Positions 1-16,053 are shown, counted from the stretch's first letter. The stretch: DNA of 64,000 nucleotides from an uncultured Trueperaceae bacterium (GCA_963727505.1 CAVSGP010000002.1:1-64000); one strand, 5' to 3'. The notes: generated by a model not told the origin, from the letters alone. Numbers and translations: made by a program.

Positions 1-1
1 C

Positions 2-94
2 CGGGAGGAAGCGCAGACCGAGCTGCGACAGCAGGCGGGCCGCCAGTTCGACCCGGACCTCATCGCCATCTTTCTGGAGCAGGTGCTCGACTAG
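2..94 (+). CDS. 3' end of an HD-GYP domain protein (partial)
   Basis: Frame from position 2 reads REEAQTELRQQAGRQFDPDLIAIFLEQVLD*. G.QFDP is the typical HD-GYP C-terminus and also occurs in 23018..24160. Confidence 0.7.
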   Translation, partial: REEAQTELRQQAGRQFDPDLIAIFLEQVLD

Positions 95-111
95 CACGCC
101 CCCCCAACGAG

Positions 112-573
112 CTACGCGACCCGCCACGGCAAGACCCCGCCCTCGTGATGCGTCGGGCCGGGATGCACCGGAAGTCCGGCATCCAGATCTTCGGGATGCA
201 CGTGCACGATGTGCACGCGTCCCTCGGTGTGGGTCTCGGTGAGCACCACGGCGTAGCGCGGAGACGGCGGGTCCATGTGCCCCTGGGGGTCGAGGTCGAT
301 CGCCGCGCGGGCCTCCGTCTGCCAACCCGTCTCCAGGTCCGGCGCGTCTTCGACGGTGGTGACGAGCAGTTGCTGCGCCGCGCGTTCCAGCGGCGCCCCG
401 CGCTCGGGGTGTGGCACGACCAACCGCCCACCGCGGCCGGGCAGACCGGCGTACAGGCCGAGCGTGGACGCCTCCACACCTTCGGCCAGTACGTTGCCGG
501 CACCGGCGATCATCAGCAGAACGATGGCGACGACAAGCTCGACGATCTTGCTGGCAGACAGTCGTTGACACAT
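112..573 (-). CDS. Hypothetical exported/membrane-anchored protein
   Basis: 153-aa ORF with GAGGAGG RBS and hydrophobic N-terminus ending VLA-E. Contains LYAGLPGRGGRL, similar to a motif in 3246..3971. Confidence 0.6.
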   Translation of the reverse strand: MCQRLSASKIVELVVAIVLLMIAGAGNVLAEGVEASTLGLYAGLPGRGGRLVVPHPERGAPLERAAQQLLVTTVEDAPDLETGWQTEARAAIDLDPQGHMDPPSPRYAVVLTETHTEGRVHIVHVHPEDLDAGLPVHPGPTHHEGGVLPWRVA

Positions 574-929
574 GCGGCCTCCTCAGGCTTCCGAGCGGAG
601 CGCACGCCGCCCGGAAAGGATGTGCCGATCACGCTAGGCAACGCCGCCATGAGAACCCCTGGAGGAGCCTAAACGCCGCGTATCACCGCCCACTCACGAC
701 GTCACACATGCGCACGGGAGCGGCAATCAGTGGCTCACGACCCTCCCATGCGAACCCTTCATGGAACCATCGGCGCGCACGATACCCCAGACCGAACATC
801 TCGCACGCCACGAAATGCCAGCCCCAACGGAACCGGCTCCGCTTGCAGACCTCACTGCCGTCCACGGACGCGACCCATCCCCAGCGTGCGCTTCAGCGAA
901 AGAGCTGTTGGGAGGTGAGTACGACGTTG

Positions 930-1475
930 TCAGAGAACGGCGATGCTGGCCAAGAGATGCGTGAAGTGAAGCGTCGCGTTGGTGCTGGTGCCGCCTTGGA
1001 CAGTGGCCCCGATCCAAAGCCGTCCCTGGTTGGCGGCGATGGCGAGAACCTTGCCGCCAAGGTGGATGGGTTGGGTGTTGCCATCGGCGGGCAGCGTGAC
1101 GGCGCTGGAGATGCTCGTCTCTTGAGCAGAAGGGCAGGCGTAGTAGGTGTTGGTGAGATTGGTAACCGGCGTGCAGTTGGGATCGGTGCTGGGGTTGGTG
1201 GCACGGCCATAGAACGTGAAGGTCGTGTCGTTCATGAGGCCGCTGGCACTGGCATCGCCATCGATCGTGGCGCTCGCGACGTGGAGGTTGGCTTTCTGGA
1301 AGGCGCTGGGATCCGCCGGGTAGAGGACGTCGCCTTGGGTGTTCGTGATAACGCCGAGATCGATGGTGACGTCTTGCAAGGTGACCTTGACGGGGAGGTT
1401 CTGACAGGCGGTGATCACGAGGGTCATAGCGGCAAGCGCGGAGAGAGCGAGGGCGCGGACGGAGTGCTTGGTCAT
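930..1475 (-). CDS. Hypothetical lipoprotein
   Basis: Start MTKHSVRALALSALAAMTLVITA-C (lipobox) after a GAGGAGG RBS; Thr/Asn-rich, beta-type mature region. Confidence 0.75.
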   Translation of the reverse strand: MTKHSVRALALSALAAMTLVITACQNLPVKVTLQDVTIDLGVITNTQGDVLYPADPSAFQKANLHVASATIDGDASASGLMNDTTFTFYGRATNPSTDPNCTPVTNLTNTYYACPSAQETSISSAVTLPADGNTQPIHLGGKVLAIAANQGRLWIGATVQGGTSTNATLHFTHLLASIAVL

Positions 1476-1657
1476 GAGTGGGCCTCCTCGAGGTTGGGGC
1501 GGTTCACACGGTGAGTTGGTGACGTGACGCGACGGTAGTGAGCACATCGAAGACGCCCGTCAGAATGACCGAACCGTCCTAATCTGGATGTAGTCTCCGT
1601 TCCCACGGGAACGGCGGACCAAGACCGGGTGAACCGTCTGTAGGTCCTGGGGAAACC

Positions 1658-1776
1658 GGAGGCCTCGATCCCGCGGGACGCACCAGACCGAAGGCCCGGC
1701 GCCAGACCACCAGGTCGCGCTGAAGGACCGACATTACCGCCGGAAACACCGACAATCACGCCAAGCCAGGAGCCTT
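1658..1776. repeat. Diverged copy of the left arm of the amn-3'-end junction repeat (no core)
   Basis: 1658-1732 vs 4416-4490: 64/75 identical, ungapped (by eye). Weaker similarity continues to about 1776. Confidence 0.85.
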
Positions 1777-1894
1777 CTATCGGCTCGACTATCGCATCCC
1801 CGACAACCTCAGCTTCGCGGAGCGCTGCGATCGGTGAGAGCGGCGCTGAGAATCGAGCCCCTGGCATCCAGGAGACAGGACGGGGCCGGTGCTG

Positions 1895-2956
1895 CTAGGG
1901 GAGCAGCTTGGCGGTGTAGGAGTAGGGTCCGCCGCTGCTGCAGGTAGCGCCGGGGTCGGAGGTCGTGTACTGCCCGCTGCCGCCGGCGATCGGGAAATCG
2001 CTGGTCTTGAAGTAGCCCGGGCCGATGGCGCTGCTACCGAAGCTGGAGAGGGTCAGGGTGCCGTCGTTGTTATCGGTGATGCTCTTGAACGGCGTGCCGG
2101 GCATGTACCCGAGCTGGCTGGGGTACTGGTCGAAATGGAAGCGGGTGTAGCCGCTGAGCGGGTTGCCGTTGGCGTCGAAGTAGAGGCCGAAGACGCCGCC
2201 GCTGCGGACCGCCATGGCGGCGGGGTCGGTGGTGCCGTCGACGACCAGGTAGCGCTTTAGGGCGGGAGCGGTGTCGCCGGGCGCGGCGGCCAGGTCGGGG
2301 TAGCCGAGGCACACGAAGGGGCCGCTGGGGGCGGTGGGGGTGGTGGTGTTGGCGGCGCGAGCGCAACCGCTGAACCCCACCGTGACCCGCTTCGGGTTAC
2401 GGGTGCCGCTGTTGTCGAGGCTGACCAGGCCCGCGGCGGTGGGGTCGGTGACGAAGGTGTTGCCGCCGATGACCGCCTGGCCGGTGACGTCGGCAGTGTA
2501 GTCGATCGGGTTGCTGGTGCTGCTGCCGCCCTGGCCGCTGGTGCAGGTGACCACGTGGACGGTGTCGTAGGTGCCGGCAGCGGCCTGCGCGGTGGTGTTG
2601 ATGAGGTCCTGGAAGGCCTGCAGGTTGTGGGCGAGATCGACCTTGCAGGCGTTCGGGTCGCCGCTGGGGTCGCAGTGGAAGAGCTCGGTCTGGCCGCCGC
2701 TGCCGCTGTCGGTCAGGACGATCTGCAGGATGGGGACCTTCAGATGGATCGGCGTGAAGCTCTGCACCTGGGCGGTCTGGCTCTGCGGGGTGAGGATGGC
2801 CTGGTTAGTGAGGCTGGCGGGCTGGACGGTGGCGCTCTGGGCGCTGCTGCTCTGCACGTGCAGCGTCACCTGGACCAGGTCGTGCAGGAAGTCTGGGTCG
2901 TTGAGCAGCGCTTCACGCGCCGCCGTGTTCGAGGTCGTATCGTTAGTGAGAGCCAT
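1895..2956 (-). CDS. Chimeric ORF: IS256-like transposase N-terminus fused to a Cys/Thr-rich secreted-type protein
   Basis: First ~32 aa (MALTNDTTSNTAAREALLNDPDFLHDLVQVTL) resemble IS256-family N-termini. The remainder has paired Cys and extracellular-type composition but no signal peptide. Confidence 0.55.
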   Translation of the reverse strand: MALTNDTTSNTAAREALLNDPDFLHDLVQVTLHVQSSSAQSATVQPASLTNQAILTPQSQTAQVQSFTPIHLKVPILQIVLTDSGSGGQTELFHCDPSGDPNACKVDLAHNLQAFQDLINTTAQAAAGTYDTVHVVTCTSGQGGSSTSNPIDYTADVTGQAVIGGNTFVTDPTAAGLVSLDNSGTRNPKRVTVGFSGCARAANTTTPTAPSGPFVCLGYPDLAAAPGDTAPALKRYLVVDGTTDPAAMAVRSGGVFGLYFDANGNPLSGYTRFHFDQYPSQLGYMPGTPFKSITDNNDGTLTLSSFGSSAIGPGYFKTSDFPIAGGSGQYTTSDPGATCSSGGPYSYTAKLLP

Positions 2957-3069
2957 CGTCCGCCTCCAACTGGGTTTGTTAGCGCTTCCCATTCTTGGAG
3001 GACGATGGCTCACTACCTGTGAATCAGGACCGAACCCCACAATTTGCACACCCTATTGGACGCAACCCC
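2861..3069 (-). mobile_element. IS256-family left-end remnant
   Basis: Minus strand GGGGTTGCGTCCAATAGGGTGTGCAAATT resembles an IS256-type terminal IR, followed by GGAGG RBS and a transposase-like N-terminus that is truncated. Confidence 0.55.
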
Positions 3070-3245
3070 TCGAAGGGAGCGATGAGGCCGACGTGAACGC
3101 GTTGAAGCGCGTGGTCATGGGGATGCGTGCGGGGTCGTGGGCGAGGCACATGAACGACGTTGAAGCTCGCGCTCCGGGTTCTCACCGTGGCGCGTCCTAG
3201 CGTGGGCGCGGCTCGCCGCAAGGCTCGAGCCGGAAGGAGGACGTC

Positions 3246-3971
3246 ATGAAACGAATCGTGCTACTCCTCGCAGCTCTCGCAGTTCCCGGCGTGGCGGCCG
3301 CCGCCAACGGCACCGGGCACGCCGTGACCAGCGCTACCATCGCGTTCTACAGCGGCTTCCCGAGCTCCGGAGGCACGCTGTTGGTGAAGGCCCACGGTCA
3401 GTCGGACGTGGAAACCTCCGCCCAGAAGGTGATCGCCAAGGCCGACTCCGTGGTCATCACCATGACCGGGAAGACCTACACCTTCGCGCTCGATCAGGCC
3501 GCCAAGGCCAAGGGGCAGGCCGAGGTCGACGTGAAGGGTGCCCTGCAGGCGTCCGCGCACGGCAAGGCCAAGCTCGCCGCGGTCCTCCAGGAGCTGGCGC
3601 AAGCCCAGACCGGGCAGCAATCGCTGGTGGTGCTGAGCCGCGCCCAGGGCAGCGGGCACGTCGTGCTGGCCCTGTACCACCCCGACGGCGGGAACGCCGG
3701 GATGCGCGTGCAGAACGCCGACCAGGCCACAGTCTGGGTCAAAGGCAAGGCGAAGACCTACCGGGTGACCGCCGACGGTAGCGGCGGCGTGATGTCGAGC
3801 CTGAAGCTCCGGGCGCAGGGCGGGCAGAAGACGACGCTGACCTCCACCGTCGCCGACCTGGAGACGCACGCCAGCCTGAACGCCAGCAGCTCCAGCAGCA
3901 GCAGCGGCGGCGGTCGTGACAGCAGCAGCGCGAGCGCCGGCCTCAACGTCAGCGTCGGTGGGAGCAACTGA
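3246..3971 (+). CDS. Hypothetical secreted protein
   Basis: AAGGAGG RBS, signal peptide MKRIVLLLAALAVPGVAAA, Ser-rich tail; followed by a strong hairpin. Confidence 0.8.
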   Translation: MKRIVLLLAALAVPGVAAAANGTGHAVTSATIAFYSGFPSSGGTLLVKAHGQSDVETSAQKVIAKADSVVITMTGKTYTFALDQAAKAKGQAEVDVKGALQASAHGKAKLAAVLQELAQAQTGQQSLVVLSRAQGSGHVVLALYHPDGGNAGMRVQNADQATVWVKGKAKTYRVTADGSGGVMSSLKLRAQGGQKTTLTSTVADLETHASLNASSSSSSSGGGRDSSSASAGLNVSVGGSN

Positions 3972-4003
3972 CCCAGCCCTAGCTCACACCGGCAACGCAA
4001 GCA

Positions 4004-4038
4004 CGTCTGTCCCCGCGGGCTCACCGCGGGGACAGACG
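4004..4038 (+). terminator. 15-bp stem-loop downstream of 3246..3971
   Basis: cgtctgtccccgcgg-gctca-ccgcggggacagacg; no clear U tract. Confidence 0.55.
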
Positions 4039-4110
4039 CCTATGTGCCCCCTCCCTCACGCCGCCGCGCCTGCCCGCGTGGATCCGGCGGGCGGCGTGGA
4101 TATCAAGAAG

Positions 4111-4334
4111 ATCCGCGCGTGGAAGAGGCGGCTATTGGAAGGCGCCATCGACATGTTCACCTCCAACGCGGAGCGCCAGCGTGACCAGGAGTAGGCAAGC
4201 CAGGAGTTGCACGCCACGTTCGGCGAGCTGACCTTGGAGCACGGCTCCTTGTTCGGCAAGCTCAAGCGCTAGCAGCGCCCAAACGGGAGGCCATGGTCGA
4301 TGGCCACGCCCACCTGCCGTTCCCACGACAATGA
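4111..4334 (+). pseudogene. IS3-family transposase remnant (orfA end with internal stop, orfB start)
   Basis: IRAWKRRLLEGAIDMF...QE*ASQELHATFGELTLEHGSLFGKLKR* followed by MVDGHAHLPFPRQ*, resembling the IS3-family OrfA C-terminus and OrfB N-terminus. Confidence 0.7.
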
Positions 4335-4415
4335 ACCGATCCGCAGACGAAAGCGTACGTCCAGCGCTGAACGCTCGAGAAGCTGACAAGGGAATAGGAG
4401 CATCCCCGGTTTGCT

Positions 4416-4625
4416 GGAGGCCTCATTCTCACGAGACGAACCAGACCGAAGGCTGGACGCCAGACCGCCAGGTCGCGCTGAAGGGCCGACCCAACCGCCA
4501 GCAATCACGTAAGGCGCCAGACCTTGACCACCCACCGAAGAATCATCGCCCTACCAGCGGTTGTGCCAATGGCCTAGTTTTTACGTCTCGCACGGGGTTC
4601 TTGCGAACATTCTTCCGGGCTTGGC
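4416..4625. repeat. att-like junction copy C (left arm, 44-bp core 4524-4567, right arm)
   Basis: Core 41/44 identical to 12968-13011; right arm about 41/58 identical to 11364-11420. Confidence 0.85.
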
Positions 4626-5087
4626 ATGAAGCTGTCAACTCCCAACGCAAACGTGCGAGCGCGCACTCGCGTCTGGAACTAGCCAACCCAAGCTCCCTCA
4701 GTCGCTACGCACTCCAGAACCGCGGCCAGAATGGCGGGCCAATGGAACCGCACCACCTGGCTTCGAGAGCCACCCACCGCGAACCCGGGGCACGTCTCCG
4801 TGGTCATACCTCCTACCCCATGGAGCGTGACTCAACCGCAGGGATGTTGCTGGAATGGTCTCTTCGACGCAAGCCGAGGTTCCGCAGGACAAGCCGCGAC
4901 GCCAGGCATAACCCCGGGTTCACTCGTTGCGCTTTGGCACCGGCCCCGCGAGATGCGCCATCCTCTTCGGTCCCATGGACTCGAGACCCATGCGTTCGGC
5001 TGCCCATGGAACTGCCGCAACCCTGCTTCAGCCCCGGGATTCGCGTCGCGACGACGCAAGCAATCAAGCCCGGCCGCGCTCTGCCGG

Positions 5088-7394
5088 TCAAGGCATGGGC
5101 GAAAATCGGACAAGCAGAGCATCGTTCGACGACGCTGTTGGATGCGACCCTCCGGTGCTGTCGGCGGAGGTCATCGTGCCGCTCGTAGCGACATACACGT
5201 CACCATCGCGCGCGAACGCCATCGACACCGGCTTCTCCCCGTCGCTCACCCCGAACTGCCGCACGAAGGCGCCGTTGCCGGCAGGACTGAAATCACGCAC
5301 GAACGAACGCCACGGCCGAACTTTCGCGTCGGAGCTCGCGAGGTCCTGGTTGCTCCACCCCCCCACCAGCACGCGGCCGTCGGAGTCCACCGCCACCGCG
5401 TAGCCGAACACCGCTCCATCGTGACCGAACTGCCGGAGCCAGGCGAGGTTGCCGTTGCGATCGAAGTGCAGCAGGAAGCCGTCGATGTTGCCGCTGTTCA
5501 CCTGCCCCGGCAGGCTGCCGTAGGTGTAGCCGGTGACGTAGCTGCCGCCATCTCGACCGGGGGTGACGGCGTAGGCGAAGTCGGCGCCCTCGCTACCGAA
5601 CTGCCGCAACCACACCCGCTCCCCGTTGTTGTCGAACTCGCCGACGAAACCGTCCGCCGCACCCAGGGAACGGTTGGTTGGCAAGGCACCGGTCGCGACG
5701 CCCGTGACCAGGACCTGCCCCGCCACATCGGTGGCGATCCCGTTGATCTTGTCCGCCCCGGGGCCGCCGAACTGCTGCTGCCACACCAGATCACCGCTCG
5801 CGTCGTACTTCGCCAGGAAGGCGTCGCTATCCCCTCCGGCATACCGCTGCCCGGCCAGGGTGCCGTTGGTGTCCCCCGCCACGAGCACGTTGCCCGTCGG
5901 GTCGACCGCCACGCTTCGCGCGAAGTCCGACCCCGTCGTGCCGAACTGACGGAGCCACGCCAACGCTCCGTCCGGCGTGAGCTTGGCCAGGAACGCATCC
6001 CCGGAACCCACACTGTCCCCCATCGGCATGCGGTTGCTGGTGTAACCGCTGACGTACGCGTCGCCCTGAGCGTCCACGGCCACGCCCGTGGCGCGGTCGA
6101 AGCCCTTGCTCCCGAACTGCCGCAACCACAGCCGCGTGCCACCGGCGCCGTACGCGGCCACGAACACGTCGCTCTCCCCCGCGCTCGATGTGCCAGGCAT
6201 CGTGCCGCTCGTCGTTCCGGCTACCACGACCGACCCGTCGGCGCGCACCGCCACCCCCGTGGCATGGTCGGCGGCGTCGCTGCCGAACTGCGCCACCCAG
6301 CGCGCCCCGATCGACGCCGCCGTCGCCACCCGCGCCGACGGGGCCGCCGACGTGCCCGACGCACGGGAGGAGGAAGCTCCCCCGGCGGCGGCTCCAGGCT
6401 GGCTTGACGACGCCGAAGACGAGGCCGTTGACGCCGGCGCGGATGACGACGATGGGGACGGCGCCGGGGACGACGCGGGGGACGACGCGGGGGACGACGA
6501 GCTCGGCGCTGCGGCCGCTGCGGCGGCGGCCTGCGCCGCAGGCGCCTCCACCGCCGGCGGCAGCGTCGTCAGGAGCCCCGTCACCGCGACCACCTCGAGC
6601 AACACCAACGACTCGAACCGCAACGCCCCGCGGAAGCGCTCCGCCCGGCCCGCCTGGAAGAACAGCGGCAACCCCCGCACCCGGTGCGACGCGGCCAGCA
6701 CGAGCACCACAAGGAACAACCCGTGCTTCAACAGGAGCGTGCGGCCGTACGGCGTCGTCACGAACGCGGCGATCCCGAACAACTCCGCCACCGCCGCCAG
6801 GATGCCCGTCGCCAGCACCACCACCACGCACCACAGCGCCAAGCGCGACAGCCGCCGCGCCGCCACGGCCAGAGCCGGCTCCTCCTCCGGCTGCCACGAC
6901 GGCAACCACGCCAGCATCGCCACCGACCCCACCCACAGCAGGCCCGTTGCCAGGTGAGCGGCGTCGCTCGCCAATAGGAGCCGGCTCCCCGTCGCCGCGG
7001 CATGGCTCACCAACGCGATCGCGACCACCAGCCCCGCGGACGCCGGGACCGCGATCGCCAACGACCACCCCGGCGCCCGCTGCGCCAGCCGCCCGCCCAC
7101 CACCAGCAGGGCTGCGAGCACGACGCGGACCAGCACCATCCACCCCGGCAACGTGGTGACCAGATAGCTCACCACCGTCGCTAGCGTCGGCGCACCCAGC
7201 GCCGCGCGCAGCGACGACACCACCTGCGCGAACCCCACCACCGCTACCAGCACCGCGCCCACCCACAACGCGACGTGCTGGCGCTGCCGATGGACCGGCG
7301 CGACCAGCGAGCGCCCGATCGTCGATGGGAACAGGGCCGCCCCGATCAGCAGAGCGGAGCCGAGCAACAACCAGGCCTGCAGCGCGCTCGTCAA
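5088..7394 (-). CDS. CopD-family copper membrane protein fused to a C-terminal beta-propeller (SBBP-like repeats)
   Basis: Multi-TM N-terminus with SHAA, DAAHLATGLLWVGS, TPYGRTLLLK (CopD-like); Pro/Ala/Ser linker; repeated W.RQFG....D.A.GVAVD..G units. Confidence 0.8.
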   Translation of the reverse strand: MTSALQAWLLLGSALLIGAALFPSTIGRSLVAPVHRQRQHVALWVGAVLVAVVGFAQVVSSLRAALGAPTLATVVSYLVTTLPGWMVLVRVVLAALLVVGGRLAQRAPGWSLAIAVPASAGLVVAIALVSHAAATGSRLLLASDAAHLATGLLWVGSVAMLAWLPSWQPEEEPALAVAARRLSRLALWCVVVVLATGILAAVAELFGIAAFVTTPYGRTLLLKHGLFLVVLVLAASHRVRGLPLFFQAGRAERFRGALRFESLVLLEVVAVTGLLTTLPPAVEAPAAQAAAAAAAAPSSSSPASSPASSPAPSPSSSSAPASTASSSASSSQPGAAAGGASSSRASGTSAAPSARVATAASIGARWVAQFGSDAADHATGVAVRADGSVVVAGTTSGTMPGTSSAGESDVFVAAYGAGGTRLWLRQFGSKGFDRATGVAVDAQGDAYVSGYTSNRMPMGDSVGSGDAFLAKLTPDGALAWLRQFGTTGSDFARSVAVDPTGNVLVAGDTNGTLAGQRYAGGDSDAFLAKYDASGDLVWQQQFGGPGADKINGIATDVAGQVLVTGVATGALPTNRSLGAADGFVGEFDNNGERVWLRQFGSEGADFAYAVTPGRDGGSYVTGYTYGSLPGQVNSGNIDGFLLHFDRNGNLAWLRQFGHDGAVFGYAVAVDSDGRVLVGGWSNQDLASSDAKVRPWRSFVRDFSPAGNGAFVRQFGVSDGEKPVSMAFARDGDVYVATSGTMTSADSTGGSHPTASSNDALLVRFSPMP

Positions 7395-7398
7395 CGGC

Positions 7399-7890
7399 TC
7401 AGCCGCCCGACGCGACCGTGAACACCACGATCCCGTGCGTCACATGCGTGTCCACCGACAAGGCACGCCAAACCAGCACGTAGGTTCCCGGCGACAGATT
7501 CTTCGCGAGCTCGATCGTCACGTTCTTCGCCGCGCCCGCCGGATGCGCCAGCCCGGTATCCACCCGGCCCTTCCCCTTGCCCTTGTTCGCCATCACCCCG
7601 TCCGCGAGCTGCGCCGCCAGCGCGTGCACCCGCAAGCTGCGATCGTGCGCGCTCTCGCCCGCCTTGGCGGGCACCGACAAGGGAAGCACCACGAACAAGC
7701 TGAAGCGCTTCTGCACCGCCTCCGTGAAGGCGAGCTGCAGCGAGGCCGGCGCGCTCCCCAATACAGCGCCATCGGCTGGCGCCGACGCCGTCAGGTGGGA
7801 GTGCGCCCAGGCCGGCACCGCAAGGCTCAAGGCCAGGAAGGCGAGGAGCCAACGAAGCGACGACGACGCGCCCATACGCACCGGCCTCAC
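7399..7890 (-). CDS. copC: Copper resistance protein CopC
   Basis: Signal peptide, mature N-terminal H-SHLTASAPADGA, C-terminal Y.LVWRALSVDTHVTHG. Confidence 0.88.
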   Translation of the reverse strand: MRPVRMGASSSLRWLLAFLALSLAVPAWAHSHLTASAPADGAVLGSAPASLQLAFTEAVQKRFSLFVVLPLSVPAKAGESAHDRSLRVHALAAQLADGVMANKGKGKGRVDTGLAHPAGAAKNVTIELAKNLSPGTYVLVWRALSVDTHVTHGIVVFTVASGG

Positions 7891-8315
7891 GGGAACGTGA
7901 TCGAGGACGCCTGCGCGACCTCGTCGCTCTGGAACGTCACATCGACCTGCGTCGAGCCGATGTAGCCATGCACCCTCAACGCATAGACACCGGGTCGCGA
8001 CAGGATGAACGGCGACGTGTAGTGACCCGGCGACCCGTCCACCGCCGCCAACGGCAACGACCTCGACGACGACCCGTCAGGAGCCAGGATCGTCACGTCC
8101 AGGCTCTTCTCCAAGTTGTCCACCGGCTGCTTGTCCGCACTCGTCTGCACGATCAGGTCCAGCCCGTTCAACGTATCCGTCACCGGCGGCTCGTTCACGA
8201 ACCCCAGCAGCACGTCGTACGGACCCACCGTCTTCAACTCGTGCGCCGACGCCCCCGACACCAGCGCGGCCAGGAACACCGTCACCACCAACGCGATCGC
8301 GCGCTTCATCGCCAT
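7887..8315 (-). CDS. Secreted protein with N-terminal His after signal peptide (candidate Cu-binding, Ig-like)
   Basis: AGGAGG RBS; MAMKRAIALVV...ASA-HE; GFVNEP and PGHY..PG.Y motifs; overlaps the copC start. Confidence 0.75.
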   Translation of the reverse strand: MAMKRAIALVVTVFLAALVSGASAHELKTVGPYDVLLGFVNEPPVTDTLNGLDLIVQTSADKQPVDNLEKSLDVTILAPDGSSSRSLPLAAVDGSPGHYTSPFILSRPGVYALRVHGYIGSTQVDVTFQSDEVAQASSITFP

Positions 8316-8639
8316 CGTCTCCTCCTGGGGGCACACCCGACATCGCCCCGCCATGTCTCGTGCTGGGCATGATACCGGAACCAGGCTCGTGCACCCCAGG
8401 CTCACCTACCCAACGGCCGGTCCTTTGCAGCCGCCACGCCATCTCGAAGCGCCATGCCAACGTCTGCCAGGAGGCCCCCCAGAGCGCATGGGCTTCCGGA
8501 AACAGCATGGCGATCGCTAACCAAGGCTCTCCGGAGCTTCGCCGTTGCTGCGTAGTGATCGCCATGCGCGATCTTGCATCGGCGAGAGATGCAGCCAACA
8601 CACCAGACCCTCGCCGCGACGTCGAGACTTGGAGTTGCC

Positions 8640-10067
8640 TCAGTCCGAAGGCGCGATATTCCGGTTCACGCGGAAGAAGTTGGTGGGGTCGTACTTGGCC
8701 TTCACCCGTCTAAGACGGGCGTAGTTCTCACCGTAGGCCGCTTGCAGGCGTTGCTCGTCGTCATCAGCGAGTTGGAAATTGACGTAGTTGCCGCCCGTGG
8801 AGAAGGGGCGTATCGTCTCCCACGACCTCCGCACCCAGGCGATGTGGGGGTCGGCTGGGGCGTCGGGCGCCCAGGTTCCCGAGAAACCGGTGATGTATCG
8901 CGCGTCTCTGTTGCCCACGGCTCCGTCATCCTTCGGTCTCTGGTTGAGGGCGCCACCGAGATGGAAGAGCACGGACTGGCTCATCGGGCTCGTAAGCTGC
9001 AGACCACCCTCGCGGAACGCCTCCAAGAAGCCGTCCGTCAGCCCAGGAAGGAACTCCGTCTTCCAGTAGCGGTGGGGACCGCTCGGCTCGTTGGCATCGA
9101 GCATCGACTGGAGTGCCGTGTATGGCATCCGGGAGAGCGTGCCGAAGGCGGGATCCGGCAACTGATGGATGGGGGCGAGGGCGTGGTCCGGCTCGTCACC
9201 GGTGTAGCACACGATCATGGCGACGATCGGCTTCCCGCGCCGCGGCTCCGGGACGAAGGGCGCCGGCGGGGCAAGCCTCAGCACCACTGCTAGCGTGAGC
9301 TCCAGCGGAGCGGAAGCTGTGATGCTCTTGTAGGCGTCAAGGATTTCTTCGGCCTGCTCGGCGCCCCAGGCGATCAGTCCCGCCGTGACCAGCGGACCAA
9401 CGTCGTGGAGTCGGTAAGCGAATTGCGTGACGACCCCGAAGTTCCCACTACCGCCCCGTATCGCCCAGAACAGGTCGGCGTTCGCGTCCCTGTTCGCCGT
9501 GAGGATCTCCCCCTCAGCCGTAACGATCTCGACCTCTTCGACGTTGTCCACCGTCCAACCGAAACGCCGGGTCAGATAGCCCCAACCTCCGCCGAGGGTC
9601 AGGCCCGCGATCCCGGTCTCGGACACGAAGCCCAACACGGTTGCGAGGCCGTGCGCTTGCGTCGCGGCATCGACCTCGCCCAAGACGCAGCCGGGCTGCA
9701 CGCGCGCGATGCTCCGCCGCGTATCCACGGTGACCGAGCGCATCAACCCCATGTCGATCGTTACGCCTGCCGGCGCGTTGGCGGTGCCCGCGATGTTGTG
9801 CCCCCCGCCCCTGATGCTGACGAGCAGGTCTCGTTCGCGCGCGAAACGGATGACGCTCGCCACCTCCTCGGCCGAGGCAGGTTGCACCACCAAGGCGGGC
9901 GTCCGAGCCGCCATCCCGTTCCAGGTCTGGATGGCCTCGCGGAAGCCGTCGTCCTCGGGGAGGAGAACGCGGGCGCCCACCTGGTCTCGCAGTTCCGCGA
10001 GCTGGTGACTCCTGAGGGTGAGGGGCGGTCCTTGCAGGCGACTGACCTCGATCGCTCGTGCGGCCAT
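8640..10067 (-). CDS. FAD-binding oxidoreductase, BBE/VAO family
   Basis: RGGGHN covalent-FAD motif, GIAGLTLGGG, DLFWAIRGGSGNFG, YVNF, KAKYDPTNFF. Confidence 0.92.
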   Translation of the reverse strand: MAARAIEVSRLQGPPLTLRSHQLAELRDQVGARVLLPEDDGFREAIQTWNGMAARTPALVVQPASAEEVASVIRFARERDLLVSIRGGGHNIAGTANAPAGVTIDMGLMRSVTVDTRRSIARVQPGCVLGEVDAATQAHGLATVLGFVSETGIAGLTLGGGWGYLTRRFGWTVDNVEEVEIVTAEGEILTANRDANADLFWAIRGGSGNFGVVTQFAYRLHDVGPLVTAGLIAWGAEQAEEILDAYKSITASAPLELTLAVVLRLAPPAPFVPEPRRGKPIVAMIVCYTGDEPDHALAPIHQLPDPAFGTLSRMPYTALQSMLDANEPSGPHRYWKTEFLPGLTDGFLEAFREGGLQLTSPMSQSVLFHLGGALNQRPKDDGAVGNRDARYITGFSGTWAPDAPADPHIAWVRRSWETIRPFSTGGNYVNFQLADDDEQRLQAAYGENYARLRRVKAKYDPTNFFRVNRNIAPSD

Positions 10068-10110
10068 GGCGTGCCTCCTCGCTCGCCGTGCGCTGTGGTG
10101 GGGCGGTGTT

Positions 10111-10152
10111 ATGCTCCGATTAGGAGTAAGTCTATACTCCAACTTGGAGTAT
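10111..10152. promoter_or_regulatory. Two 19-bp palindromic operator boxes between divergent genes
   Basis: ATACTCCAA-c-TTGGAGTAT (10134-10152, perfect IR) and ATGCTCCGATTAGGAGTAA (10111-10129). Confidence 0.7.
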
Positions 10153-10166
10153 GTCAAGAGGTGGGG

Positions 10167-10844
10167 ATGAGCGATCGACTGACGACAACGTCCTACGCTG
10201 TATTGGCTCAGGTAGCCGTGCGACCGTGGTCCACCTACGAGCTGGCCCAACAACGCGTGCGTTACTTCCGGTACGTCTGGCCCCGAGCGGAGAGCGCCAT
10301 CTATCGCGAGGCGAAGCGACTCGCCTCGATGCGGCTGATCCAGGGCAAGAAGGAGTACACGGGCAAGCGGGCGCGGACCGTCTACGCGATCACGGAGGCT
10401 GGCAAGGAAGCCTTGCGGGAATGGCTGGCAACGCCCGTCTCTCCGTTCTCGATGGACTTCGAAGCGATGCTGCGGGTCTTCGTACTACCGCTGGGGACCA
10501 AGACCGATATCCTCCGGACGCTCGAGCAGGTTCGTAGGGACGCCCGAGAGATGCTCCGGTTCGCCGGCGAGGTGAAACAGGAGTTCCTCGACGGCATCAA
10601 CGTCACCCAGGATCAGGTCTACATCAGGGCCTTCGTGGTCGACTTCTTCGTCAGCCTGCTGCAGACCGTGGAAGCATGGGCCGATCGCAGCCTGGCCCAG
10701 ATCCGTTCCTGGGACGACCTGCAGCCGACCAGCGAGAAGAACGACGAGGGCCTCGAGAAGATGCGACGGTTGACCGTCGAGACTCCCGGTACGCCACTGG
10801 GGCGAGCGTCCGTACCCCCCGAGAGCCAGACACGTTCGAGGTAG
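10167..10844 (+). CDS. PadR-family transcriptional regulator
   Basis: LTTTSYAVL...STYEL...WPRAESAIYREAKRL...YAITEAGKEALREWL. Confidence 0.9.
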   Translation: MSDRLTTTSYAVLAQVAVRPWSTYELAQQRVRYFRYVWPRAESAIYREAKRLASMRLIQGKKEYTGKRARTVYAITEAGKEALREWLATPVSPFSMDFEAMLRVFVLPLGTKTDILRTLEQVRRDAREMLRFAGEVKQEFLDGINVTQDQVYIRAFVVDFFVSLLQTVEAWADRSLAQIRSWDDLQPTSEKNDEGLEKMRRLTVETPGTPLGRASVPPESQTRSR

Positions 10845-10913
10845 CGGTTCCGAGCCCCCCGGTAAGGCCGCCCATGCAAACCTCTCCTCGTAGCCCTCTA
10901 CGTCGCCTTCACC

Positions 10914-11168
10914 ATGGCAGGTCTCCCGGGCGACGCCGTCACACGCCTGAAGCGGGACGGTGAAGACCTCACCATCCTCGGCAGCGGGAACCTCCTGGAA
11001 ACGCTCATACCCCGCAACCTCATCGACCAATACGTGCTCCTGATCTTCCCACTCGTGCTCGGCACGGGACGGAAGCTGTTCCCGGACGGGACGTCACTGC
11101 GCCTGCGCCTGGTCGAGAGCCTCGCATCTCCCAAGGGGGTCGTGCTGGCGACCTACGTGCCGGCCTGA
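10914..11168 (+). pseudogene. C-terminal fragment of a RibD-C/dihydrofolate reductase-family protein
   Basis: ILGSGNLLETL...LIDQYVLLIFPLVLGTGRKLF...GVVLATY; the N-terminal half is missing. Confidence 0.75.
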
Positions 11169-11256
11169 CAGACGATGTCTGGCCGGTCCGGAGCGTTCCG
11201 ATCACGACGCACCCCTGCGTGCCCGCCAGACACGGCTCAGCGAACCCGGACCGCAC

Positions 11257-11420
11257 ACCAAGCCGCCGAACCGCGCCAGAACCCCAGCCCGACCGCCAGC
11301 AAAGAGACACGTCACCTAGAGTTGACCGCCTGCCGCAGAATCCTCGCTACCAGCGGTAGTGCCAGTTGCCCAGGTCTTACCTGCAGCACGGCATTCATGC
11401 GAACGGCCTTCCGGCTAGGC
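11257..11420. repeat. att-like junction copy B (left arm, core 11322-11363, right arm)
   Basis: Core 38/44 vs 12968-13011 (2-nt gap); left arm about 30/46 vs copy C, mostly transitions; right arm about 41/58 vs copy C. Confidence 0.8.
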
Positions 11421-11521
11421 GCCAGCGGCAAGGAAGCCCGTTCGTCCTCGTACTCACGTTCCGCGGGCCATCCCGCATCCGCGCCGTCACGCCAACGAAG
11501 GCCCGAAGCCCGCCCCTGGCT

Positions 11522-11875
11522 CTATTCCAACCCCAGATGCAAACGCAACGCCGCCTCGACCTGCCGCATGTAGCCCTCCGGGAGCACGCCCACCGGTTCG
11601 GGCGCGAAACGCTCGAAGGCGAGCGCGCGCACCTGCTCGGCCTGCGCCTTGCTGTCGCGAGACAGCCCCGTAACCTCGGCGGGGAGGTACACCTGAAAGG
11701 CCAACACGCGCTCCGCGTTGCTCGTCAGCGGCACTACCGTGAGCACGCCACGCCGCAAGCGCTCCACGACAGCATTCAGCGCATCGTGACTGACGATGAC
11801 CACCGGCCGCGACCGGCTCGCCTCGCTGCCACGAGCCGGCTCGAGATCCACGACATAGACCTCACCCCGACGCAT
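11522..11875 (-). CDS. mazF: PemK/MazF-family toxin
   Basis: MRRGEVYVVDLEPARGSEASRSRPVVIVS...VVPLTS...DSKAQAEQVR. Confidence 0.92.
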   Translation of the reverse strand: MRRGEVYVVDLEPARGSEASRSRPVVIVSHDALNAVVERLRRGVLTVVPLTSNAERVLAFQVYLPAEVTGLSRDSKAQAEQVRALAFERFAPEPVGVLPEGYMRQVEAALRLHLGLE

Positions 11876-12101
11876 CGGTCGCCAGGCCGTCGGCCGCGGT
11901 CGCGTCCCACGCCTCTTCGTCCCCAGACGCCTCCCACTCGGACAGGGCCGCAGCGTACTCCCGCTGCAACTCCTTGTCTCGAAGCGCCCTCACGGCCTCC
12001 TCCAATGCCTCGTTGCGGGAGCCGAGGTGATGATCGCGCTGATAGGCGTCCAGAAAGCTGGCAAGACGTTCGTCCAACCGCGCCGTGACATGAACCTTCA
12101 T
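11862..12101 (-). CDS. Ribbon-helix-helix antitoxin of the MazF-like toxin
   Basis: MKVHVTARLDE...SRNEALEEAVRAL...WDATAADGL; overlaps the toxin start; TGcTACAAT lies 7 nt upstream of ATG. Confidence 0.82.
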   Translation of the reverse strand: MKVHVTARLDERLASFLDAYQRDHHLGSRNEALEEAVRALRDKELQREYAAALSEWEASGDEEAWDATAADGLATDASG

Positions 12102-12300
12102 AGCACGCATTGTAGCACGTGCTGTGTCACACTGCGTGGTCAGCAGCGATGCCCGAAGGCCCATCCGTGATCGTCACTTCGTCGACCGTGATGAAGCGTG
12201 CTGGGTTTGGTGGACGCTGCACTCTCGCACAACAGGCCAGACGGAAGGCCAGGCAAGCGATTAGCGTGTACGGCCGACCCCGATTGACGAACCCGACAAC

Positions 12301-12336
12301 ATAACGCTTGACGTTATTAACGCATGGCGTTACGCT
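12301..12336 (+). promoter_or_regulatory. higBA sigma70-type promoter overlapped by two TAACG-n5-CGTTA palindromes
   Basis: TTGACG (12308) -17 nt- TACGCT (12331), 5 nt before GTG; boxes taacgcttgacgtta and taacgcatggcgtta. Confidence 0.7.
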
Positions 12337-12341
12337 AGGAC

Positions 12342-12623
12342 GTGATCAAGAGCTTCCGGAACCTTGACACCCAGAAGCTCTTCGAAAGGCGCCCGGTTCG
12401 GCGATGGCCACCCGACCTCCAACGCCGCGCCCTCCGGAAGCTCCTCATCCTCGACGCCGCCGAGACACTCGCCGACCTCCGCGTCCCGCCAGGCAACCGG
12501 CTCGAGAAGCTCACCGGAGACCGGGCCGGTCAGCACAGCATCCGCATCAATGACCAGTTTCGCATCTGCTTCCGGTGGTCCAACGGCAACGCCCACGCCG
12601 TCGAGATCACCGACTACCACTAG
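12342..12623 (+). CDS. higB: HigB (RelE-family) toxin
   Basis: MIKSF...DLRVPPGNRLEKLTGDRAGQHSIRINDQFRICFRW...VEITDYH. Confidence 0.93.
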   Translation: MIKSFRNLDTQKLFERRPVRRWPPDLQRRALRKLLILDAAETLADLRVPPGNRLEKLTGDRAGQHSIRINDQFRICFRWSNGNAHAVEITDYH

Positions 12624-12633
12624 GAGACCCACC

Positions 12634-12939
12634 ATGACCCACGAACCAACGACCCACCCGCCCGTCCACCCCGGCGAGATCCTCCTCGAAGAGTTCCTCG
12701 ACCCCATGCACATCACCCAATACCGCCTCGCCAAGGACATCTCCGTCCCACCCCGCCGCATCAACGAGATCGTCCACGGCAAGCGCGCCATCACCGCCGA
12801 CACCGCCCTCCGCCTCGCCCGCTACTTCGGCACCACCGACCGCTTCTGGCTCAACCTCCAGGCACGCTACGACCTCGAAGTCGCCAAGGACCGACTCGGC
12901 AGCAGACTCGACCGGGAGGTCACAGCGGCCGCCCACTGA
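12634..12939 (+). CDS. higA: HigA antitoxin
   Basis: PVHPGEILLEEFL...RRINEIVHGKRAITADTALRLARYFGT..FWLNLQ..YDL. Confidence 0.93.
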   Translation: MTHEPTTHPPVHPGEILLEEFLDPMHITQYRLAKDISVPPRRINEIVHGKRAITADTALRLARYFGTTDRFWLNLQARYDLEVAKDRLGSRLDREVTAAAH

Positions 12940-12967
12940 TCCCATCCCCGGCAGCGACCGTACGCCG

Positions 12968-13011
12968 TTGACCACCCGCCGAAGAATCATCGCTCTACCA
13001 GCGGTAGTGCC
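12968..13011. repeat. att-like core copy A overlapping the 3' end of AMP nucleosidase
   Basis: ttgaccacccgccgaagaatcatcgctctaccagcggtagtgcc includes the codons for HYRW and the stop. Confidence 0.85.
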
Positions 13012-13870
13012 GGATATGCTCCCCCCGCTCCGCGATCTGGCTCATGGCCTCGATCCCGACCTCGATGTGCCGATCGGTGAACTCGCGGAAGACCGCCCGC
13101 GCGGAGTCGCGGGTCTTGATGCCGCCGCGCTTCAGCGGTAGGTCGGACACCAGCAGCAGCGCTCCGACGGGGACCTTGCTGGCGAAGCCGACGGAGAACA
13201 GGGTCGCCGTCTCCATGTCGATGGCCAGCGCGCGCTCGTCGTAGAGATGCTGCTTGAAGCGCTCGTCGAACTCCCAGAAGCGGTAATCGGTGCTGTGCAC
13301 CACGCCGGTGCGGTAGTCCAGCCCGCGCTCGACGATGATCTGCGAGATGAACTTCTGCACCTTGAACGTCGGCAGGGCGGGAACCTGCGCCGGCATGAAG
13401 TGGCGCGACGCACCTTCGTCGCGGATGGCCGCGGTGGGTAGGACGAAGTCGCCGACCTCGAGCGAGCGGTGCAACCCTCCCGCCATCCCCAGGAACAGCG
13501 TGGCCTTGGGCTCGGCCGTCGCCAGCACCTCGATGATGAGCGCCGCGACCGGCGAGCCCACCGAGAAGTTGACCAGCGAGACGCCCATGCGGGCGCTGTG
13601 CTTGACCGTCATGGCCGAGCCGCGCGTGGTCTCGGCGTCGTCGCACAGCACCGAGAAACGCTCCATGTAGTACTCGAAGTTGGTGAGCAGGATCTGCTTC
13701 TGGAACTGCTCGGGCGGCGTTCCGGTATAGCGCTCGAGCACCTCCCGGCCGATCCGCCACTTCTCCGGATTGTTGTAGATCAGGTTCGGGTTCACCGTCC
13801 GTGGCGACATGCCTGTCTCCGGGGCGTCGTCTTCCGGGCGCGGGACCGTCACGTCATCGTGCTGCTCCAT
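12995..13870 (-). CDS. amn: AMP nucleosidase (PNP/UDP family)
   Basis: LERYTG, ILLTNF, LPTAAIRDEGAS, RFWEFD, AIDMETATLF, GALLLVSDLP. Confidence 0.88.
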   Translation of the reverse strand: MEQHDDVTVPRPEDDAPETGMSPRTVNPNLIYNNPEKWRIGREVLERYTGTPPEQFQKQILLTNFEYYMERFSVLCDDAETTRGSAMTVKHSARMGVSLVNFSVGSPVAALIIEVLATAEPKATLFLGMAGGLHRSLEVGDFVLPTAAIRDEGASRHFMPAQVPALPTFKVQKFISQIIVERGLDYRTGVVHSTDYRFWEFDERFKQHLYDERALAIDMETATLFSVGFASKVPVGALLLVSDLPLKRGGIKTRDSARAVFREFTDRHIEVGIEAMSQIAERGEHIRHYRW

Positions 13871-13912
13871 GGGCCATGCTAGCGGCTGCGCTCCGTCACG
13901 GCGTCAGGAAGG

Positions 13913-15523
13913 TCACCAGCGACGCGTCCAGGCCGTCCGGCGCCACGGCTCCCCGGTCGGTGCCTCGAGCGTGTCCGCCAGCGCCCGGGCCTCGTCGAGG
14001 TAGCGACGGTGATCGTCTGCCGCGGTCGCCTCCGACCGCGGCACCGCCTGCCAGCTCGCGCTGTCGAACCCACACTCCGGCTCGGCGTCGGCCCCGTGCT
14101 TCCACGCTCCCGTGCTCCAGTCGAATCGGTAGAGCGGCACGAAGCGTGCGCCATGCTCCGCCACGAACGCCAGCGCGTCGAGCAGGAACGCGAAGGTCTC
14201 GTCGGTGATGGCGTAGTGGAAGCTGACCCGGCTCCAGCCGGGACGCACGCCCTCGAAGCCCGCCTCGATGGCATCGTGATATGCGCGCGAGCGCTCGGCG
14301 TCGATGCCCAGCAACTCGTGGCCGTAGGGACCGGCGCAAGAGCAGCCGGCCCTGCCCTGGATGCCGAAGAGGTCGTTGAGAAGGCGCGTCACGAGGCGCG
14401 GATGGAGGGTCCGCTCGCCGCCGGTGCGCACCTCGAACGACAGCACCGCCAAGCGCGGCGCATCGACGTTGCCCAGCACGCGCAGGTTGGGGTGGTCCCG
14501 GAACCGCTCGATCGCCTTGTCGATGAGCTGGCGCTCGCGCTTCTCGATGCGTTTCACGCCGACGCGTTCCTTCACCTCGAACGCCATGGCCGCCCGCAGC
14601 TTCTGCAGGATGGCCGGCGTGCCGGCGTCCTCACGGGCCTCGATGTCGCCGAGGTACCAGTGTCCCAGCGGGCTGACGTAGCTGACCGTGCCGCCGCCGG
14701 CGGTCGTCGGCACCGGCTGGTCGTAGAGCATCTGGTCGAACAGCAGTACGCCGGGCGATCCCGGCCCGCCCAGGAACTTGTGGGGGCTGAGGAACAGCGC
14801 GTCGATGCCGTCCAGCTCGCCCGGGCGCACATCGATGTCGACGTAGGGTGCGCTGGCAGCGTAGTCGAAGAAGGCGGCCGCCTGGTGCTCGTGCAACAGG
14901 TGCGCCACCGCCCGCACGTCGGTGACGATGCCGGTGACGTTGCTGGCCGCCGAGAACGACCCGATCCTGGGGCGGCCCGCGAAGCGCGGGTCCTGAAGGC
15001 CGCGCTTCAGCGCGTCCAGGTCGATGCTGCCCCGCTCGTCCAGCGGGATCGCCACGACCTCGGCCAGCGACTCGCGCCACGACAGCTCGTTGGAGTGGTG
15101 CTCGTAGGGTCCCACGAAGACCACCGGGCGTTCCTCGGGCTCGAGCAGCGCCAGCACGCGCTCGCGCAGCGACGCCGGCACCGCCAGCCCCAGGATCTCC
15201 TGCATGCGCTTGATAGCGCCGGTCGTGCCGGTGCCGGCGAACACCAGGCGGTAACGCTCGTCGGCCCCGAGCTGCCGCTTGATGTAGTTGCTCGCCTCGT
15301 GGACCAGGTGCGTGGTGTGCGCGCCGGTGGCGCTGTCCTCGGTGTGGGTGTTGGCGTAGAGCGGCAGCACGCTCGCCCGCAAGCGCTCCTCCACCGACGC
15401 CAGCGGCCGGCCCGAGGCGATGTGGTCGGCATAGGTGACGCGCCGCTCGCCGAAGGGCGTGCGCACGCAGGCGTCCTCCCCCAGGATGTCGCTCCGAAGC
15501 TCCGTCAAGACCGATCGGCTCAC
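13913..15523 (-). CDS. Class V PLP-dependent aminotransferase (cysteine desulfurase-like)
   Basis: YANTHTE, EHHSNE, AASNVTG, SPHKFLGGPG (PLP Lys), RAGCSCAGPY. Confidence 0.88.
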   Translation of the reverse strand: MSRSVLTELRSDILGEDACVRTPFGERRVTYADHIASGRPLASVEERLRASVLPLYANTHTEDSATGAHTTHLVHEASNYIKRQLGADERYRLVFAGTGTTGAIKRMQEILGLAVPASLRERVLALLEPEERPVVFVGPYEHHSNELSWRESLAEVVAIPLDERGSIDLDALKRGLQDPRFAGRPRIGSFSAASNVTGIVTDVRAVAHLLHEHQAAAFFDYAASAPYVDIDVRPGELDGIDALFLSPHKFLGGPGSPGVLLFDQMLYDQPVPTTAGGGTVSYVSPLGHWYLGDIEAREDAGTPAILQKLRAAMAFEVKERVGVKRIEKRERQLIDKAIERFRDHPNLRVLGNVDAPRLAVLSFEVRTGGERTLHPRLVTRLLNDLFGIQGRAGCSCAGPYGHELLGIDAERSRAYHDAIEAGFEGVRPGWSRVSFHYAITDETFAFLLDALAFVAEHGARFVPLYRFDWSTGAWKHGADAEPECGFDSASWQAVPRSEATAADDHRRYLDEARALADTLEAPTGEPWRRTAWTRRW

Positions 15524-15612
15524 GGTCTGTGCCTCCTTCCGTGCATCCGGCGCCGCAGGGGCGGCCCGAGCCGGGGCCTCCCCGGCACGCGCCCTCGAAC
15601 CCTCGGCGTCGC

Positions 15613-16053
15613 TCAGGCCGCGGCCGCCGGGGTGAGGTGTGGATCCAGGCGCTGCCGCAGCGGCCCCTTCGGCATGGCACCGACGACCTGGTCCACCAGC
15701 TCGCCACCTCTGAACAGCAGGAGCGTGGGGATACTCTGCACCCGGTAGCGGCTCGCCGTCACCGGGTTCTCGTCGACGTTGAGCTTCACGACCTTGAGCC
15801 GGCCGGCGAGCTCACGCGACAGCTCCTCGAGCACGGGCGCCACCATGCGGCAGGGACCGCACCAGGGAGCCCACATGTCGACCAGCACCAGCACCGGGGA
15901 TTGGACCTCACGTTCGAAGGTGGCGTCGGCCCCCTTCACCAGCCACGGCAGGGACGTGCCACAGCGGCCGCACGACGGCAGCGTGCCCGCCGGAGGCGAC
16001 GTCAAGCGGTTCTTCGCCCCGCAAGCGGGGCATGCGACGATCCCGTCGTTCAT
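15613..16053 (-). CDS. trxC: Thioredoxin 2 (N-terminal zinc finger)
   Basis: CPAC...CGRC plus WAPWCGPC. Confidence 0.92.

Follow-up and report, generated by a model that had tools for sequence, protein, structure and literature searches.

Small gene cassettes in tandem behind the AMP nucleosidase gene amn of uncultured Trueperaceae, and a possible site-specific route for their exchange

The window analysed here is a stretch of 64,000 nucleotides (GCA_963727505.1 CAVSGP010000002.1:1-64000) that forms the first 64 kb of contig C2, with window base 1 being C2 base 1, in the 3.26-Mb genome of an uncultured Trueperaceae bacterium (70% GC, 15 contigs, 97.4% complete). Its first 13 kb carry a tandem array of gene cassettes that starts at the stop codon of amn, encoding a short AMP nucleosidase, and is divided by copies of a junction unit of about 275 nt (Table 1). 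A first-pass annotation made from the sequence alone had seen a 44-bp repeat in three copies (A at the amn end, B and C further away) bounding two "islets" of 1.6 kb and 6.8 kb. Pfam scans of open reading frames (ORFs) filtered by GC content at third codon positions (GC3), which covered the window, contig C9 of the same genome, the array loci of nine relatives and metagenome contigs, bear out what it had read in these intervals: HigB/HigA and MazF in the smaller one, and CopD, CopC, a YtkA-like gene, an FAD/BBE oxidase and PadR in the larger one. The end of amn, encoding His-Tyr-Arg-Trp and the stop codon, falls inside the core of copy A.

Table 1. Features of window positions 1-13870, listed from amn towards the contig start
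Feature	Position	Strand	Basis or content
amn, short AMP nucleosidase	12995-13870	-	NCBIfam NF005500, 317 bits vs cut-off 264; Pfam PNP_UDP_1
Junction A, gene-proximal attachment (att) site	12938-13015 (core 12968-13011)	+	Left block and 17-bp amn end, no right arm
HigBA cassette	12299-12994	+	HigB 12342-12623, HigA ~12630-12939; Pfam, NCBIfam
Left-arm remnant between MazEF and HigBA cassettes, core lost	12193-12267	+	nhmmer, model positions 2-74, E=4e-5
MazEF cassette	11348-12189	-	MazF 11522-11875 (Pfam)
Junction B, full unit	11190-11467 (core 11322-11363)	+	Repeat search, profile
RibD_C fragment	10914-11168	+	Pfam
PadR regulator	Within ORF 9405-10844	+	Pfam
FAD/BBE oxidase	8640-10253	-	Pfam
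YtkA-like gene	7887-8405	-	Pfam
CopC	7399-7890	-	Pfam
CopD fused to beta-propeller	5088-7394	-	Pfam
Junction C, full unit	4397-4672 (core 4524-4567)	+	Repeat search, profile
Cassette of unknown ORFs	1760-4396	both	384-aa ORF 1895-3049 (-), 241-aa ORF 3246-3971 (+)
Two left-arm copies with no core behind them, decayed junction	1571-1629, 1644-1759	+	Repeat search, profile
Unknown ORFs up to contig start	1-1570	112-573 (-), 930-1547 (-)	Pfam scan

Repeat search and BLAST (the latter run in a 25-kb search space) confirm the three copies. The 44-nt core of A, made of the last codons of amn and 27 downstream bases, is 93% identical to C (41/44; BLAST E=4.7e-12) and 86.7% identical to B over 45 nt (E=1e-7), while B and C match each other at 73% over 130 nt (E=1.3e-12) and, in the repeat search, at 76% over core and right arm (4551-4618 vs 11347-11414). 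The similarity claimed for the right arms of B and C holds: it extends over about 110 nt beyond the core, a region that in A is occupied by amn coding sequence, and the homology proposed for their left arms is real as well, with about 130 nt in common left of the core and nhmmer matches of both copies that cover the whole ~275-nt model. The first-pass annotation had missed the three left-arm-only copies listed in Table 1 and two further full units on the minus strand of contig C9 (~3868-4131 and 4888-5163). Neither BLAST nor the profile found a significant copy in this genome beyond C2:1-13015 and C9:3868-5163, and in the relatives G006, G019 and G048 all copies lie in one array behind amn. 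The scatter independent of any one locus that would mark a dispersed repeat such as a miniature inverted-repeat transposable element, which the annotation had named as evidence that would speak against its proposal, was thus looked for and not seen in the own genome.

The array may continue across an assembly gap, since the window begins at the first base of C2. The terminal junction of metagenome contig L098 has cupin, TetR and MMPL genes behind it, arranged as they are beside junction D on our contig C9. The start of C9, in reverse, is therefore likely to form the distal portion of the array of the window, whose total length would in that case exceed 18 kb. The independently assembled contig C8 of relative G003 (locus L041) ends at the same homologous point as our window, upstream of a 153-aa ORF (window 112-573) whose product is 97% identical to the one at the start of the G003 contig, and this shared break suggests a repeat or strain-variable element at that point.

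We next describe the unit from a junction profile that was seeded on the copies of the own genome and iterated over the loci of relatives, giving 56 matches in loci of metagenome-assembled genomes (MAGs) and 37 on 19 metagenome contigs, all in one orientation within each array. As delimited by this profile and by the raw junction sequences, a unit consists of a left arm, the conserved 26-nt left block TTGACCACCYGCCGAAGAATCATCGC, a variable spacer of 0-8 nt, a stop triplet (TCA, CTA or TTA), CCAGCGGTAGTGCC and a right arm, in which CTAGTTTTTACG and GCGAACATTCTTCCG are conserved. Column conservation in the profile peaks at ACCAGCGGT, a practically invariant stretch inside CCAGCGGTAGTGCC, and is high over TTGACC..GAAGAATCATCGC and over TAGTGCC, non-coding copies included. 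Read directly from the sequence, CCGAAGAAT of the left block and ATTCTTCCG of the right arm are inverted copies of each other, and GCTCTA-CCAGCGG-TAGTGC forms an imperfect dyad. The triplet in front of CCAGCGG reads as an amn stop codon at all 14 amn junctions and in 47 of 51 non-identical internal junction windows, some of which stem from near-identical populations. Three stop-compatible forms alternate at this position, and CCA (Trp), one change away from TCA or CTA, was seen only once. This pattern suggests that the junctions are maintained in a state fit to terminate amn and, therefore, that the amn end is the regular entry point of the array.

A rival view takes the repeat for a regulatory or RNA element (small RNA, promoter, terminator or insulator) rather than a recombination site. 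In unit C, conserved blocks contain sigma-70-like -35/-10 hexamers that lie on the minus strand and point towards the distal side (GTCAAC / ATTCTT at 4638-4609 and TGCCAA / ATCATC at 4569-4542), and a scan for such sites found three in 14 kb vs 0.9 expected. Against this stands that the units hold no terminator-like site except a weak one at 4666-4653, that Rfam gave no match for window 1-16000 at E<=1, and that folding with RNA parameters showed neither a common structure among eight single units (z-scores -1.7 to +1.6) nor a covarying pair in an alignment of 15 sequences (-3.4 kcal/mol, 5 pairs); a structured RNA or an attC-like hairpin was rejected on these grounds. The related idea that the repeat is the end of a target-specific, Tn7-like transposon meets the difficulty that 14-17 bases of the target gene are repeated at every junction, which is not a product of transposition, and that the Pfam scans found no transposition genes. 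We consider both versions very improbable.

The unit has a narrow distribution. It is present in 10 of 128 Trueperaceae genomes (with six candidates scored per genome) and in three of 36 genera, namely in seven of nine genomes of the own genus and in one genome each of two others. Exact-pattern matching of the core against one genome per species (185,579 species), a set in which MAGs often lack mobile elements, returned 16 stretches, all from Trueperaceae/Deinococcales MAGs, and the same pattern matches 19 distinct metagenome contigs. Where contigs are long, as in G006 (four junctions in 18 kb), G048 (five in 7.4 kb) and G019 (two in 2.5 kb), all copies point the same way and belong to one array beginning at the amn stop; in addition, G002 carries at least six junctions in 9.5 kb, and those of G005 lie on at least five contigs. 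We located amn in 18 of 41 related genomes and retrieved up to 20 kb downstream of it for comparison. Eight of these relatives, all more distant (G010, G012, G013, G015, G017, G020, G021 and G022), have no array: their amn ends in YTACCAGCGGTARTGCC and the stop codon, followed by unrelated sequence without the left block, so that only 17 coding bases are shared. The first insertion at such a site had, therefore, too little homology for RecA recombination. As a separate observation, the amn junction of G003 lacks the left block.

Comparison with relatives shows cassettes that move as units among changing neighbours. The MazEF cassette (11323-12189) is 96.2% identical over 867 nt to one in G048, a member of another genus in which it is the first cassette behind amn, and the HigBA cassette (12299-13012) is 93.1% identical over 714 nt to the fourth cassette of the same array, where it has an intact core on both sides; amn itself is only 84.7% identical between the two genomes. 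Metagenome contig L101 has the order amn-MazEF-HigBA, the reverse of that in the window. BBE-PadR forms a separate 2.6-kb cassette in G002, CopD-CopC-YtkA stands alone beside a junction in G006, and the VapC cassette and 205-aa ORF of contig C9 recur in G003, G002 and G005 with different neighbours. Since their cassettes occur separately and with other neighbours in relatives, both intervals of the first-pass annotation are composites of at least two cassettes each. The 1.6-kb interval comprises two that meet at a junction without a core (the remnant at 12193-12267, of which G048 has the intact equivalent), and the 6.8-kb interval at least a copper cassette and a BBE-PadR cassette. The annotation was right about the gene content and the arrayed arrangement, but the units are smaller and more numerous than its term islets suggests.

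Cargo in other arrays includes AbiE, RES, VapBC, arsenic genes, a multicopper oxidase, GGDEF/EAL proteins and ABC transporters, and many units are minimal, with one toxin-antitoxin pair and a complete site in 0.75-0.9 kb. Within the window, the ORF in the antitoxin position upstream of mazF (11862-12164) matches no family, and the CopD fusion protein comprises 768 aa with a beta-propeller of SBBP/NHL repeats and is 81% identical to a protein of G006. Alignment of the gap between the YtkA-like and BBE genes (8405-8640), a putative degenerate junction, to G002 and G006 was uninformative. In locus L056 (G002:C65, 2045-3656), the BBE oxidase aligns in two pieces that overlap (2671-2045 and 3656-2667), which gives the impression of a frameshift. 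The ORFs of the cassette at 1760-4396 have no match in NCBIfam or PADLOC, with a sub-threshold Pfam match to Gln_amidase for the 241-aa ORF, and Pfam at E<=1 and PADLOC yielded nothing useful for the unknown ORFs of the arrays in general. Likewise, the cassette adjoining amn on L099 (1632-5118) encodes proteins of 367 aa and 771 aa that match neither Pfam (E<=1) nor PADLOC.

The reading of A as the gene-proximal junction and of B and C as junctions between cargo units is supported by this variable cargo, by the array-less sites and by the position of the breakpoints. In eight of nine pairs of junctions that are alike on one side only, the switch point lies in the core or at its edge, which is the kind of variation in relatives whose absence would have spoken against the proposal. 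Moreover, polymorphisms in the left half of the core segregate with the left cassette and those in the right half with the right cassette, as expected for an exchange in the middle of the core. Contigs from the Logan collection (four runs) contain joints, each on a single contig, of 12923 to 4522 (X7, side 83) and of 13009 to 12264 (X5, side 39) as well as spacer indels at 12993-12996. We did not count the joints as evidence of excision: they also fit other neighbours in the communities, circles and other cassette orders are indistinguishable in such data, and likeness below 95% at joints calls for caution.

Breakpoints in the core are also what homologous recombination between the ~275-nt junction repeats might produce, for example after natural transformation, in which case the sites would be old scars of accretion with no dedicated recombinase acting today. 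Members of this order are known for competence and efficient recombination, the perfect 15-nt blocks of the core would concentrate crossovers anyway, the ninth pair (G019 vs G048) switches at about +36 in the right arm rather than at the core, and no recombinase was recognised in or beside the arrays scanned, or as conserved along with them. However, the junctions are only 72-85% alike outside the core, discrete blocks of the arms are conserved across cassettes with unrelated cargo, and the stop triplets have been kept in 47 of the 51 junctions. Recombination between repeats would, moreover, leave the first insertion into array-less sites with their shared 17 bp unexplained, and it does not readily account for single cassettes of 0.8-0.9 kb that are 93-96% identical across genera amid different neighbours. 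We therefore regard this main rival as unlikely. If it were nevertheless correct, the locus would still be a clear recombination hotspot, but an ordinary one.

We favour, with a probability of roughly 0.6, conservative site-specific recombination at the amn end by a recombinase supplied in trans as the origin of this tandem array of small cassettes. What the sequences show directly is how the unit is built, that it is confined to the amn locus, that there are sites without arrays, that cassettes are shuffled across genomes and genera, and that the arrays contain no recombinase gene. Cassettes would have been inserted into the last 17 bp of amn (YTACCAGCGGTARTGCC), and each of them would, as a circle, carry the ~275 bp as an attP-like site. 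Integration at the amn end or at any junction would restore the amn reading frame and leave a complete site between neighbours, by which arrays could grow and reshuffle. The recombinase would be encoded outside the cassettes and act in trans, its source being either the host or an element that the assemblies missed. That circular intermediates and supply in trans are involved is what we infer from this arrangement; strand exchange would probably occur within or beside the invariant ACCAGCGGT, and a tyrosine recombinase that works with a 7-bp overlap would match the dyad GCTCTA-CCAGCGG-TAGTGC. Integrative elements that rebuild their target commonly work in this way, by recombining an attP-like site with a short attB where a conserved gene ends. 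The present case stands out by its minimal and numerous units, exchanged singly between genera, with no recombinase carried or adjoining.

Several points weigh against this site-specific reading. Besides the breakpoint at about +36, the variable spacer between left block and core is unusual if the left block is a core-type binding site. The left block is present as far out as the most distal junctions, and for this reason the attB ancestral to the clade may have measured 44 bp rather than 17 bp. Every genome behind these results is a MAG. Most of all, no recombinase with this site specificity was found in the own genome, the relatives and the collections searched. PF00239, PF01548 (IS110), PF00665 (rve) and PF01797 (Y1) have no match in the own genome, and pattern scans of genomes, metagenome contigs, viral contigs, plasmids and phages revealed no integrase-bearing element with this site. 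The own genome encodes two PF00589 proteins, both on contig C4, of which the phage-type integrase (G000:C4:474987-476336) was rejected as the enzyme of the array: no core-like 16-mer with up to two mismatches lies nearby, its best relatives elsewhere are 30-39% identical, and it has none in G005, G006 and G019 at E<=1e-10.

The other PF00589 protein is Xer-like and conserved, its counterparts in G004-G007 and G019 being 73-92% identical. G005:C66, G006:C15 and G007:C23 (L124-L126) encode a further Xer-like paralogue that shares about 45% identity with it; this paralogue was rejected as well, having no match in G000, G004 and G019, lying in an ordinary chromosomal context in G006 and not tracking the arrays. 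A PF07508 match at G000:C1:5793-5930 (21.3 bits vs a cut-off of 21.1) falls in no ORF with coding-like GC3 and is probably spurious or a relic. PF00589 occurs in 122 of the 128 genomes of the family (a tally that includes G118, on which we make no claim), and array-bearing genomes are poor in it with one to six each. Core matches on two viral contigs (L129 and L130) were taken as chance because of their 51% GC and their location within a 501-aa phage ORF; the core-plus-right-arm pattern has no match among viral contigs, and the plasmid and phage collections contain none at all.

The first-pass annotation had seen no integrase in its islets, and indeed no ORF of any array matches an integrase, resolvase or transposase in Pfam, except for insertion sequence (IS) fragments in G003 and L095. 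The amn-proximal part of the G003 array (L041, G003:C8, 5847-7958) contains IS3-type fragments, whose ALIL frameshift pseudoknot (RF01497, 97 bits) lies at 6125-6241, and an ORF for a reverse transcriptase (RVT_1) at 7059-7958. One could read the units as classical cis-mobilizable elements (CIMEs), each the decayed remnant at amn of an integrative and conjugative element (ICE), an integrative and mobilizable element (IME) or a prophage that lost its integrase independently. This would agree with the use of amn 3' ends by integrase-bearing phages elsewhere (PMC5247547) and with the accretion and decay described for ICEs and IMEs (PMC5704250). In contrast, the scanned arrays of about ten genomes and 19 contigs contain no integrase, relaxase, conjugation or phage gene, many units consist of just one toxin-antitoxin pair and a complete site, and the sites are well preserved even though the supposed elements would have been almost wholly deleted. 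We find this explanation improbable. Between the two routes that the annotation had left open for its islets, mobilisation in trans thus fits the arrays better than the loss of an integrase by each of them.

A bolder version of the site-specific reading, which we advance only tentatively, is a chromosomal gene-capture platform distinct from integrons, in which a host-encoded or unrecognised recombinase would insert circular cassettes at the amn stop, each bringing a spare amn stop, and which would let cassettes circulate between genera of Trueperaceae. To our knowledge, no platform for storing and reshuffling small gene cassettes other than the integron is well understood. A second, independent one that follows this logic with different sites, the end of a housekeeping gene as its anchor and no linked integrase would, if true, imply more than one origin of cassette platforms and the existence of a recombinase yet to be discovered. 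In addition, the arrays let one trace concretely how toxin-antitoxin, copper and arsenic genes pass between uncultured Deinococcales of sediments and soils.

Among known systems, the closest in target are P2-like phages of Burkholderia, for which amn is an attachment site (PMC5247547, citing Lynch 2010), so that amn is an integration site already in print even if the first-pass annotation had not known it as one. These phages use the same kind of target gene but occur in another phylum as complete prophages that bring a tyrosine integrase of their own, and cassette arrays are not described for them. Literature on amn integration sites or genomic islands and on integrons in Trueperaceae, as represented by the partial texts retrieved, holds no description of the present system. 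Staphylococcal cassette chromosome (SCC) and pseudo-SCC composites sit at the 3' end of rlmH and depend on large serine recombinases (Ccr). Like the amn arrays, they target the last bases of a conserved gene, are bounded by direct repeats and form tandem composites that include recombinase-less elements and carry metal-resistance genes; unlike these arrays, they belong to another phylum and have much larger units, and the own genome has no gene with the resolvase domain of PF00239. With regard to integrative mobile elements exploiting Xer (IMEXs), the core does not by eye resemble the dif consensus, and the array is anchored at amn.

CIMEs of the ICESt1/ICESt3 type at the 3' end of a housekeeping gene (PMC5704250) resemble the array in being tandem, in restoring the gene end and in that their mobilisation would need an integrase in trans. 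As in CIMEs, its units lie between direct att repeats into which the target gene's 3' end is built, the gene end is restored, and integration and transfer genes of its own are absent. It differs in that no related integrase-bearing element, the kind of relative by which a CIME is defined, was found by exact-match scans of genomes (MAGs), metagenomes and viral, plasmid and phage sequences, and in its units, which at 0.75-7 kb are far smaller, come with at least 5-8 junctions per genome, retain no remnants of transfer or integration genes and are exchanged singly between genera.

A further comparison is with integrons (IntI, attI and arrays of attC cassettes) and with clusters of attC sites lacking integron integrases (CALINs). 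The amn arrays are like them in their co-oriented sites, small cargo units, frequent toxin-antitoxin and stress-resistance cargo, one fixed entry at the head of the array and shuffling of cassettes between genomes. Yet no PF00589 protein is encoded among the array or flank ORFs, the sites are ~275 bp long and form no attC-like hairpin in RNA-parameter folds, genes lie on both strands and in several multi-gene units rather than in mostly single-gene, promoterless cassettes of one orientation, and the place of attI at the head is taken by the region around the amn stop codon. The array works both like CIME accretion and like an integron, while differing from true integrons in every feature tested.

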